Shown: piece by piece, positions 22,614 to 27,040 of the stretch
Position numbering within the stretch: position 1 is the stretch's first letter
Layout: each line of letters starts with the position of its first letter
Source: an uncultured Phycisphaerales bacterium
Lineage (GTDB): Bacteria > Planctomycetota > Phycisphaerae > Tepidisphaerales > Tepidisphaeraceae
Assembly (NCBI GenBank): GCA_963755915.1
Contig: CAVWLP010000003.1
Location: forward strand, 192,001-256,000
DNA: 64,000 bases
Direction: 5' to 3'
Notes under the pieces: generated by a model
Told to the model about the DNA's origin: nothing
What the model saw: the letters and a program-made list of their open reading frames with translations, nothing else
Databases searched by the model: none
Translations under genes and position numbers: made by a program

Positions 22614-22846
22614 GTATTTCATGGCGACCTCAATTGAAGGCAGAATGTCGGTAGCGCACAAATCGGACCCCCTCCCTAACCCGCGCTGCGCGAGAGAGTA
22701 GAGCAGTTGAGAGTAGAACAGTAGAAAAATACAAATCTCAGGCGATAGTGGGGGTGGGGAAATGAGGGGCGCGCGGCAGGTCTCTTCTTCGCGCTCTTCG
22801 CGTCTTGGCGGTTAAAAATCTGCTTTCCGATCCGGCGAATTGGGGT

Positions 22847-23516
22847 TCACTTCTCGGTTCTGCCTCTGGCTAGGGCGCACTGTCCATGCCTTGTCAACTT
22901 CCACAACGGCACTGCGAGTGCCGCCCCCAGAATTGGCGCGGTGAGATAAACCCACAGTCCGGCGAGATGCCCCGACACGACGGCGGGCGCGAGAACGGGC
23001 GGGATTCATGGACGCGCCACAAATCGGACCGGCGAACATTGCTTCCAGGCCGATGATCCCGCCCACGGCGATTCCTGCCATCACGCCGGTTTCCTTCGGG
23101 CCGGTGGACACATTCAGGATGACGAGCATAAGCAGGCCGGTCAGGACGGCCTCCAGCGCGAACGATTGCCACGGCGAGCCTGCGGGAATGGTCGCGCCCA
23201 ACGCGGCGCGGTTGCCGAACATGGCGAGCAATGCGCCGCTCGCGACAAACGCCCCAAATAGCTGGGAGACGATGTACGGCACGACGTGCCGGGTGGGAAG
23301 ACGACGCGACAGCCAAAAGCCAATGGTCACCGCCGGGTTTAAGTGGGCGCCCGATACATCGCCAAACGTGTAGATCATCGCCATCACAATCAGGCCGAAG
23401 GTCATGGCGACCCCGACATGCGTAACGGCATGGGTCAGATCGTCAATCACAATCGCGCCGGTGCCCGCGAACACCAAGGCAAACGTCCCTATGGCCTCCG
23501 CAACGTAGCGTCTCAT
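22847..23516 (-). CDS. MIP-family aquaporin/aquaglyceroporin (arsenite-channel candidate); 2-nt frameshift near 22995
   Basis: SGAHLNPAVT and GASMNPARS NPA boxes. The corrected C-terminus reads APAVVSGHLAGLWVYLTAPILGA...RTEK*. Confidence 0.9.
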
Positions 23517-23938
23517 TCGGGAATCCACTTTCGCATGGCTTCATCAATTTCATCGCGAACGCGGCGAAATACTTCGAGCCGTTCGGATTCGCTTCCGGCG
23601 GCGGCGGCAGGGTCATCAAACGGCATGAAGGTTCGGGAGAACGCGCCGGGCCAGAGGCGCGGGCAGGACTGATTGGCATTATCGCAAACGATCAGCACGT
23701 GGCGCACCGGCGACTTGCCCAGAAAATCGCGGACATCTTTGGGCCGCCGGCCGCTGATGTCGATTCCGATTTCGTTCATCACCCGCACGGCCAGCGGATG
23801 TACCTCTGACTTTGGCTGTGTGCCGGCACTGGCGGCAGAGAAGTCATCCGCTTTGTACTTCTTCAAGAATGCCTCGGCCATCTGGCTACGCGCGGAATTG
23901 CCCGTACACAGCACCAGGATCATGGGTTTGTCATCCAT
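23513..23938 (-). CDS. arsC: Arsenate reductase, thioredoxin-coupled LMW-PTP fold
   Basis: CTGNSARSQMAE P-loop, resolving pair CDNANQSCP, FDDP, FRRVRDEI. Confidence 0.9.
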   Translation of the reverse strand: MDDKPMILVLCTGNSARSQMAEAFLKKYKADDFSAASAGTQPKSEVHPLAVRVMNEIGIDISGRRPKDVRDFLGKSPVRHVLIVCDNANQSCPRLWPGAFSRTFMPFDDPAAAAGSESERLEVFRRVRDEIDEAMRKWIPE

Positions 23939-23996
23939 ACGGATTTCCGGATAAAGCCACGCGGCGGTTGTGAACCTGCCGCGTGGGAAATGCTGT

Positions 23997-24074
23997 CTAC
24001 TTTTTGGTTCCGCACGGACAGCCGGGCGGACACTCCGGACAGCAAGAGCAGCAGGTGCAGGACAAAGCAGTCAT
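23997..24074 (-). CDS. 25-aa Cys-rich metallothionein-like peptide (absent from ORF track)
   Basis: MTALSCTCCSCCPECPPGCPCGTKK* (8 Cys); GAGGT RBS just upstream; first ORF after the MerR-type promoter. Confidence 0.7.
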   Translation of the reverse strand: MTALSCTCCSCCPECPPGCPCGTKK

Positions 24075-24141
24075 GGCACACCTCATGGTTAGAGACGGCC
24101 CGGAAGCCATCGCGCGATGGCACAGTTCCGAACCTTGTCAC

Positions 24142-24173
24142 AGTGTAGAGGTTGCACCTTAGTGCAAGGTCAA
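24142..24173 (-). promoter_or_regulatory. MerR-family promoter/operator
   Basis: TTGACC, 20-bp spacer, TACACT, with the dyad TTGCAC-TAAG-GTGCAA in the spacer. Long spacers with an internal dyad are the established MerR/ZntR/CueR architecture. Confidence 0.85.
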
Positions 24174-24616
24174 GGGCTTGCGCGTAGAACAGCGCGGCGA
24201 CGTGCAAATCGCGGATTTGCCGGTCTTGATTCGCTCGATTTCGTTGCACCAGTCGGGGCCGCCCTTGCAGCAGGATTTCAAGGCAATGGACAAGGCCCGG
24301 TCTATGCGCTTCAATTCGCCGAGGCGCTGCTTCACATCCGCAAGGCGGCGCTGAATAGCGCGGCGACTTCATCGCATGGCGGTTCATCCGAGTAGGTCAA
24401 TGCGAGCATTTCGCGAACGTCCTTCAAGCTGAATCCGGTCGCCTGCGCGGCGCGGATAAACTTCAGTCGTTCGGCAGCGCGAGAGGTGTACGTGCGGTAG
24501 TTAGCCTGGGTGCGGGCATCCGGCTTTAACAATCCCCGGCGTTCATAGAACCTGACCGTGGAAGTGGGAACGCCGGCAGCCCTGGCAAGCTCGCCAATTG
24601 TCATTGCGTCTTTCAT
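24159..24616 (-). CDS. MerR-family metal-responsive regulator; frameshift near 24357
   Basis: MTIGELARAAGV..STVRFYERRGLL, YRTY, LKFIRAAQATGFSLKDV, PPC. The corrected C-terminus IQRRLADVKQRL...KSCCKGGPDWC...ICTSPRC...LH* is Cys-rich. Confidence 0.9.
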
Positions 24617-26647: not shown

Positions 26648-27040
26648 TTACACGGCCGAGAATTTGTCCAGGCATGACGGACAGAGACAACCTTGGTAAT
26701 CCTGCTCCAGCCGCTTAAGCGTATCGGGGCTGAGGCGAACGGTCTCGCACCAGCAACCGCCATCCGTGCAACAGTCAAAGCCGTTGCCACACTTCGGACA
26801 GACTTTCGCTTGCACGCGTGCGGGACATTCGGCACTGGCAGGCTTACTGTTTGGATACGGACAGTTTCGGCAGCCACTGCCGCAGCACGAGCCGCGAGCG
26901 AGAAGGAAATCGCGCGAGATCGCACCATCCTCGTCAAGAAATGGAAGCAATTGGCCTGCACAAGTTTCACAAACCTCGCGGGACAATGTCTGACGGACCG
27001 CCAGGCACTTTGGGCAGAATCGAAGGATCCTTAGCGGCAT
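26648..27040 (-). CDS. Cys-rich protein (zinc ribbon, DUF5522-like and CWC-like domains)
   Basis: CPKC..CETC, FLLARGSCCGSGCRNCPY, CPKCG..F.C....CWC, CLCPSCL. Confidence 0.75.
   Translation of the reverse strand: MPLRILRFCPKCLAVRQTLSREVCETCAGQLLPFLDEDGAISRDFLLARGSCCGSGCRNCPYPNSKPASAECPARVQAKVCPKCGNGFDCCTDGGCWCETVRLSPDTLKRLEQDYQGCLCPSCLDKFSAV

Follow-up and report, generated by a model that had tools for sequence, protein, structure and literature searches.

A Candidate Arsenite-Binding Micropeptide Encoded by a Conserved Cysteine-Rich Short Gene at the Head of a MerR-Type Arsenic Operon in Phycisphaerales

RESULTS

A 25-codon open reading frame lies between a MerR-type promoter and arsC

The window analyzed here is a stretch of 64,000 nucleotides (nt) of one contig of an uncultured Phycisphaerales bacterium (genome termed G000 herein). 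The features around the small open reading frame (sORF) described in this study all lie on the minus strand and are given in the direction of that strand.

24159 to 24616, minus strand: merR-like regulator gene, with the likely start MKDAMTIGEL, lying in two frames with a base missing near 24356
24142 to 24173, minus strand: MerR-type promoter/operator, with the −35 element TTGACC at 24173 to 24168, a 20-nt spacer, and the −10 element TACACT at 24147 to 24142
24097 to 24134, minus strand: stem-loop in the 5′ leader, with the perfect inner palindrome GCCATCGC/GCGATGGC
24079 to 24084, minus strand: Shine-Dalgarno sequence GAGGTG, 4 nt 5′ of the sORF ATG
23997 to 24074, minus strand (read from 24074 to 23997): sORF of 25 codons plus TAG, encoding the Cys/Pro-rich micropeptide MTALSCTCCSCCPECPPGCPCGTKK
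23957 to 23986, minus strand: GC-rich hairpin 10 nt 3′ of the sORF stop, with 9 bp (CCACGCGGC/GCCGCGTGG), followed by CUUUAU
23513 to 23938, minus strand: arsC, encoding an arsenate reductase of the low-molecular-weight phosphatase (thioredoxin-coupled) type
22812 to 23528, minus strand: MIP/aquaporin-family channel gene, overlapping the end of arsC, with a break of the frame near 22990

The sORF is the first cistron downstream of the promoter and is followed by the hairpin, arsC, and the channel gene. Its predicted product has 8 cysteines among 25 residues (32%), which form CxCC, CC, and CxC clusters, together with 4 prolines, and it contains neither aromatic residues nor histidine. An earlier note on this DNA, made from the sequence alone, had drawn attention to a cysteine-rich frame of this length and composition at 23997 to 24074 and gave no strand for it; the frame is present on the minus strand, its translation has all of the properties claimed, and the GAGGT ribosome-binding site named in the note corresponds to GAGGTG, read from 24084 to 24079. 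The same layout is found in G001, a genome of the same genus, at 91% DNA identity.

An alternative in-frame ATG at 24110 would make a product of 37 amino acids. The extension from 24110 to 24074 has no Shine-Dalgarno sequence, and all three differences between G000 and G001 that were read from the alignment within it are nonsynonymous; 24110 was therefore rejected, and the start was placed at 24074. On the scale of the whole genome, a high cysteine content is by itself not significant, as 7 of the 34,284 ATG-initiated ORFs of 20 to 45 amino acids in this genome encode at least 8 cysteines, and it is the conservation of the frame, the start, the Shine-Dalgarno sequence, and the cysteine pattern that lifts the sORF above chance. 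Residues C9 to P20 of the peptide (24011 to 24049) show the C-x2-C-x2-C-x3-C-P spacing of the classical 4Fe-4S ferredoxin motif; this spacing is not shared by other genera and is probably due to chance.

The regulator and its promoter have the layout of a MerR activator system

The product of the merR-like gene matches the Pfam families MerR_1 (PF13411; E value of 8.4e-22), PF00376 (6.1e-16), and MerR-DNA-bind (PF09278; 9.5e-12). Its best NCBIfam matches are ZntR, CadR/PbrR, and MerR, with 71 to 80 bits, below the curated cutoffs of 143 to 168, and none of the named equivalogs (ZntR, CadR, MerR, and CueR) takes it in, all scores being under the cutoff. The G001 orthologue is intact (152 amino acids), and this protein was used as the anchor of a family search in 141 genomes of the order, which led to 18 loci besides that of G000, all of them in one family and with identities of 46 to 100%. 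Cysteines in a PC(D/E)E motif and in a CC-x6/7-C loop are kept in 17 of the 18 MerR orthologues, the 18th being frameshifted; distant MerR homologues in the phylum have single-Cys C-x7-9-C loops instead. Three or four regulator thiols would suit As(III), and the cysteine pattern would be compatible also with Zn, Cd, or Hg as the effector.

The 20-nt promoter spacer holds the dyad TTGCAC-TAAG-GTGCAA (24167 to 24152), and the TAA stop codon of the merR-like gene falls within this dyad. A long spacer with a dyad is the established layout of MerR-activated promoters. Both parts of a MerR activator system, i.e., N-terminal helix-turn-helix and dimerization domains in the regulator and a dyad promoter with a 19- to 20-bp spacer, are found at the locus, and the −35 element, dyad spacer, and −10 element upstream of the sORF agree with the earlier claim that it is the first cistron behind a MerR promoter. 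A scan for sigma-70 promoters that considered spacers of 16 to 18 nt only reported nothing. The promoter is identical in G001 and nearly identical in a congener (G007), and a TTGACCTT(G/A)CAC...TACACT-like sequence lies downstream of every orthologous merR examined. In the whole genome, the operator occurs once, with no control matches.

Orthologous promoters drive arsenic genes

The arsC product matches Pfam LMWPc (7.7e-18) and NCBIfam arsC_pI258_fam (2.3e-31; 108.7 bits, below the cutoff of 174.3), and the sequences CTGNSARS and VCDNANQSCP are present in it. The channel gene matches Pfam MIP (1.3e-40), and its copy in G001 is intact (227 amino acids). G000 is a long-read assembly of 3 contigs with 81% completeness, and both its merR-like gene and its channel gene are frameshifted. 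In short-read contigs from public soil runs (X1, X5, and X6), one base is inserted behind 24356 in merR; in the channel gene, GA is added after 22990 in the X1 contig, and GC after 22992 in the X5 and X6 contigs. Because the short-read contigs restore the bases and the G001 genes are intact, the two frameshifts are assembly errors and not signs of pseudogenes, and the operon itself is intact.

Every one of the 18 orthologous MerR promoters drives arsenic genes, namely, arsC, arsM, a MIP channel gene, or an ArsJ-type GAPDH gene, as assigned by HMM for a subset of the downstream genes and by reading of the N termini for the remainder. The connection with arsenic suggested in the earlier note is strengthened by these loci. 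The HMM-tested genes comprise three arsC genes (1.7e-33 to 1.4e-44, all below the curated cutoff), two MIP channel genes, four genes for arsenite methyltransferases (268 to 292 bits; cutoff, 263), and the gene for an ArsJ-associated GAPDH in G534 (550 bits; cutoff, 450). No metal ATPase, mer, or other metal gene was found within ∼1.5 kb downstream of the 18 promoters. In 5 of the 8 loci with an intact sORF, the sORF adjoins the gene of a thiol-dependent reductase; elsewhere it directly precedes the GAPDH or MIP gene.

A role of the sORF as a RiPP precursor was rejected, since no maturase gene (radical SAM, cyclodehydratase, LanM, etc.) lies near it; its neighbors are merR, arsC, and the MIP gene, and the related loci are alike. 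Two genes upstream of merR, a 130-amino-acid ORF (26648 to 27040, minus strand) contains many CxxC pairs (MPLRILRFCPKCLAV...). Outside the window, an identical 58-amino-acid ORF (VGRIRRLYSF...) is present at least 6 times on contigs C2 and C3 (e.g., C3:366911-367087), each time with identical upstream bases, and is presumably part of a repeated mobile element.

Predicted RNA structures flank the sORF

The leader and the sORF together are predicted to fold with −85.8 kcal/mol (z score, −3.45). Changes in the leader stem-loop of G001 and G007 keep the RNA pairing (by G-U or compensatory pairs) yet break the DNA palindrome, which suggests that the element acts as RNA and is not a second operator. 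The leaders of G438, G479, and G007 also contain a palindrome resembling CGTCGCGCGACG.

The hairpin behind the sORF has a predicted energy of −24.9 kcal/mol in G000 (z score, −4.28). All 8 loci with an intact sORF have a hairpin 3′ of it that starts 1 to 10 nt past the stop codon, and its sequence is not conserved. The hairpin is strong in 6 of the 8 loci (z score of ≤−3.4) and weaker in G479 and G490. U tracts after the hairpins are weak or missing in most of these loci, and neither the minimum free energy fold nor the centroid fold of the leader, both for G000 only, contains an antiterminator pairing.

The sORF recurs in seven genera

Among the 18 loci found with the MerR anchor, 7 have an intact Cys/Pro-rich sORF with a Shine-Dalgarno sequence and an ATG, 2 have damaged copies, and 9 have no sORF; with G000 included, the intact sORF is present in 8 genomes from 7 genera of one Phycisphaerales family. 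The copies other than that of G000 are as follows.

G001: 25 amino acids, intact
G438: 27 amino acids, intact
G444: 29 amino acids, intact
G479: 30 amino acids, intact
G490: 29 amino acids, intact
G548: 36 amino acids, intact
G534: 38 amino acids, intact
G007 (L126/L152): damaged, with a 5-nt gap, a TAG replacing a Cys codon, and a tandem duplication of CPPGCPC
G535 (L156): damaged, diverging after 23 codons

The 8 intact members are 25 to 38 amino acids long, contain 24 to 32% cysteine, and are proline rich; aromatic residues are absent from all 8, and a single histidine occurs in one of them. Each has GAGGTG, GGAGG, or AGGAG 4 to 5 nt before the ATG. Only M1, three cysteines, and one proline are invariant, and sequence and length vary widely between genera, a pattern that would also fit a constraint on composition only. 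Units of the (E/D/T)CPP type differ in repeat number between the members, with 3 to 4 repeats of (E/T/N)CPP in G548 and G534, and it seems that family members lengthen by duplicating such units, in the manner of metallothioneins. The sORF is dispensable, in that 9 of the 18 orthologous promoters lead straight into arsM (5 loci) or arsC (4 loci).

As to the two damaged copies, the G007 assembly, in 7 contigs with 61% completeness, is error-prone and has breaks in merR and the MIP gene as well, and the damage to its sORF may be decay or assembly error; the TAG would need two substitutions. In G535, the first 23 codons of the sORF match the sORF of the congener G534, after which unrelated sequence follows within a 136-amino-acid frame; this reflects either a rearrangement or a chimera of contigs.

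The cysteine core is kept through synonymous changes

G001 and G000 show 11 differences within the sORF. In the cysteine core (codons 8 to 26), 4 synonymous changes and 1 nonsynonymous change (a conservative K/R exchange) are found, in comparison to 1 synonymous and 4 nonsynonymous changes in codons 1 to 7. A scan of metagenomes gave one locus, the contig L123, which ends the frame with ...CCSCCPECPPGCPCGTKK-stop and differs from G000 at 7 positions over 19 codons, all 7 being synonymous third-position changes, so that the exact core residues CCSCCPECPPGCPCGT are retained. Cysteine conservation with synonymous changes, which the earlier note had named as a check, is thus found in both comparisons. 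Variant contigs of the runs X2 (partial cover), X5, and X6, which are ∼88 to 90% identical, have no indel inside the sORF.

Upstream of the first CC, L123 encodes the N terminus of a major facilitator superfamily (MFS) transporter, with no start codon for the sORF; over positions 1 to 1223, this N terminus is fused to the last 18 sORF codons at a shared TGCTGCTCCTGCTGCC-like stretch. L123 is likely a chimeric contig of the de Bruijn type, and it was used for the 57 shared bases only.

The antisense frame that shares the wobble positions accounts for the changes just as well, with 6 synonymous changes and 1 nonsynonymous change in comparison to L123. It was set aside as a coding frame only for its missing conserved start, its missing Shine-Dalgarno sequence, and the absence of an ORF of at least 24 amino acids among those listed for G001. 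Taken together, the comparisons argue that purifying selection acts in the frame of the sORF and that the sORF is a real protein-coding gene.

Database searches return no known family

When the peptide was searched against 40 relatives, it scored only in G000 (4.9e-19) and G001 (5.8e-13); matches in the genomes of 24 other relatives had E values of at least 0.02 and were discarded as noise, and the query missed all of the diverged family members that were later found via MerR. The denominators of this search and of one further search include one unpublished genome (G014), on which no positive claim rests. A 46-amino-acid stop-to-stop frame gave no candidate in an index of 5.8 billion proteins, and phmmer with the 37-amino-acid form gave no match among 1.84 billion representatives. 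None of the 8 members matched a Pfam or NCBIfam family at E values of up to 1. In the PDB, nothing scored below an E value of 0.47; the weak matches include two 2[4Fe-4S] ferredoxins (E values of 0.73 and 1.3, not significant). Rfam had no match over 23800 to 24300. As exact sequences, this peptide and its relatives (9 sequences) are all absent from ∼15 billion predicted proteins, and the earlier claim of an unannotated gene stands, now for a conserved one.

Scanning the genome contigs for CCxCCPxCPxxCxC gave 72 loci, of which only L068 has a peptide of the G001 type, the other 71 being CCP-type simple repeats or unrelated frames. A profile built from the 8 members and run against 400 genomes of the class did not find its own members G444 and G534 again, and its match in G596 was a chance match at a contig end. 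Given that the profile fails to recover its own members, the lack of matches in other genomes does not show that the family is missing there. At 29 loci of distant MerR homologues across the phylum (identities of ≤53%), no Cys-rich sORF was found.

DISCUSSION

The reading that we prefer, with a probability of roughly one half, is that the sORF encodes a metallothionein-like micropeptide that binds As(III) and is the first cistron of an operon induced by a MerR-type arsenic sensor. The MerR-family activator, with its additional Cys and its CC-x6-C site, would sense arsenic and switch on the long-spacer promoter. The 25-amino-acid Cys/Pro-rich peptide would then be synthesized and would probably be more abundant than the downstream enzymes, since the hairpin past the sORF stop would either end part of the transcripts or stabilize and protect the sORF message; a stoichiometric binder must outnumber a catalytic reductase and a channel, and either effect of the hairpin would suit this. 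The eight thiols of the peptide would bind As(III), whether imported or generated by ArsC through arsenate reduction, and the peptide would buffer it until its exit through the MIP channel, acting as a minimal metallothionein for a metalloid. The gene anatomy, the conservation of the frame, start, Shine-Dalgarno sequence, and Cys pattern in 7 genera, and the arsenic genes behind each orthologous promoter are observed; in vivo translation, the identity of the inducer, the binding of As(III), and the function proposed for the hairpin are what we infer.

More tentatively, and with the odds against this fuller version, the loci might represent an undescribed arsenic resistance module of soil Phycisphaerales, which would combine a MerR-family arsenic sensor with an arsenite-sequestering micropeptide of 25 to 38 residues that expands by duplication of CPPxCP units, is overproduced relative to ArsC under the limit set by the hairpin, and holds As(III) from its reduction to its exit through the aquaglyceroporin. 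Few detoxification systems have been studied as thoroughly as arsenic resistance operons, whose catalogue includes ArsR, ArsA/B/C/D, Acr3, ArsM, ArsH, ArsJ, and others. To our knowledge, neither a metallothionein-like peptide nor a MerR-type sensor is part of this catalogue, and we know of ars operons otherwise only as users of ArsR repressors. In the part of the literature covered here, no Cys-rich micropeptide in an ars operon and no MerR-family arsenic sensor were found, and further papers may exist. If the proposed function is correct, a natural As(III) chelator of 25 residues would be the smallest bacterial metallothionein-type protein; as a 25-mer, it would be accessible by peptide synthesis and could serve as a reagent for arsenic binding or biosensing, and its regulator would offer biosensor design a new activator that responds to arsenic. 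The case of the sORF also illustrates that gene callers miss functional genes of fewer than 30 codons.

The main rival to the As(III)-binding reading is that the sORF encodes a cis-acting leader peptide, for which the act of translation would matter: ribosome progress through the Cys codons and XPPX motifs would set the formation of the hairpin and thereby tune read-through into arsC by the supply of cysteine or thiols. It would account for the hairpin of unconserved sequence past the stop codon of every intact sORF, for the co-occurrence of sORF and hairpin (the 9 loci without an sORF have short leaders), and for a conservation that is limited to composition (Cys and Pro) and a few positions. 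XPPX motifs are EF-P-dependent pause motifs, and every member has PPG, PPD, PPE, PPT, PPN, or PPP. However, most of the hairpins come without a U tract, no alternative antiterminator pairing appears in the G000 leader fold, the strong Shine-Dalgarno sequence suggests high output, and the retention of the exact core residues through the 7 synonymous changes seen in L123 exceeds what codon identity would need. We regard a leader peptide as unlikely.

The As(III) reading is also to be weighed against the view that the peptide is a micro-metallothionein serving soft metals (Cd, Zn, Cu(I), or Hg), in which case the MerR protein would sense a divalent metal and arsC and the aquaporin gene would ride along. 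The best HMM matches of the regulator (ZntR, CadR/PbrR, and MerR) are consistent with this, and a Cys-only, aromatic-free composition is typical of metallothioneins, but the orthologous promoters drive arsenic genes at all 18 loci and metal genes at none, as judged within ∼1.5 kb, and this makes a soft metal an improbable ligand. We consider it more doubtful still that the peptide is a redox helper or cofactor peptide, whether as a source of thiols for ArsC recycling or as a very small Fe-S peptide. A thiol donor would suit the 5 intact loci at which the sORF adjoins a thiol-dependent reductase, but not those at which it directly precedes the GAPDH or MIP gene; an Fe-S peptide would suit the CxxCxxCxxxCP spacing of C9 to P20 and the ferredoxin matches in the PDB, but these matches are not significant and other genera do not share the spacing. 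That the sORF is no gene at all but an ORF arising by chance within a GC-rich leader, or an echo of coding in the antisense frame, is very improbable: Cys-rich short ORFs do arise by chance in this genome, the antisense frame fits the changes in L123 equally well, and no database has the peptide, but the combination of a Shine-Dalgarno sequence, an ATG, and a frame rich in Cys and Pro is found in 7 genera, each time in the equivalent position downstream of the shared promoter, and the antisense frame has neither a conserved start nor a listed ORF of at least 24 amino acids in G001.

Comparison with known systems

In its architecture, the short one-residue-rich ORF just upstream of a hairpin resembles attenuator leader peptides (trp, his, and pyrBI), which are short ORFs rich in one amino acid ahead of a hairpin and structural genes. 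The sORF differs from these in that no clear U tract or alternative pairing is seen, the peptide is conserved through synonymous changes, and the promoter is under the control of an activator, as predicted from its layout.

The regulator shares its domains, a 20-nt dyad promoter (19 to 20 bp in the family), and C-terminal Cys ligands with MerR, ZntR, CadR, and CueR; it differs from them in scoring below the NCBIfam cutoffs, in its CC-x6/7-C loop, and in the arsenic regulon at 18 of 18 loci. ArsD, which acts as the As(III) metallochaperone in arsRDABC operons, is a protein of ∼120 amino acids with a thioredoxin-like fold and vicinal cysteines (CC...C) that works with the ArsA ATPase. The peptide proposed here would, like ArsD, be an As(III) binder encoded in an ars operon, but it has no homology to ArsD and is of a different size, and no arsA was found among the genes adjoining the sORF in the stretches read.

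By description, the peptide agrees with metallothioneins in its low mass, a cysteine content within 15 to 35% (32% here; 24 to 32% in the family), its CxC and CC motifs, and the lack of aromatic residues, and the term "metallothionein-like" used in the earlier note is apt as far as composition goes. The bacterial metallothioneins SmtA/BmtA (family 14, PF02069) use His ligands beside Cys and are controlled by an SmtB/ArsR repressor. They are likewise small, Cys rich, and aromatic poor, with the gene of a metal-sensor-type regulator adjacent. In contrast to them, the sORF peptide is about half as long and has no His, none of the 8 members has an HMM match, which agrees with the distinction that the earlier note had drawn, and the sORF is accompanied by a MerR-type activator and arsenic genes. 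The fungal Cu-metallothioneins of the Neurospora/Agaricus type are Gly/Ser-rich peptides of 25 to 26 residues that bind Cu(I) through Cys-only ligands. The sORF peptide, compared with them by description only, is Pro rich and bacterial, but it belongs to the same size class and has the same Cys-only ligands, and the fungal proteins illustrate that a metal-thiolate cluster can be built with 25 residues.
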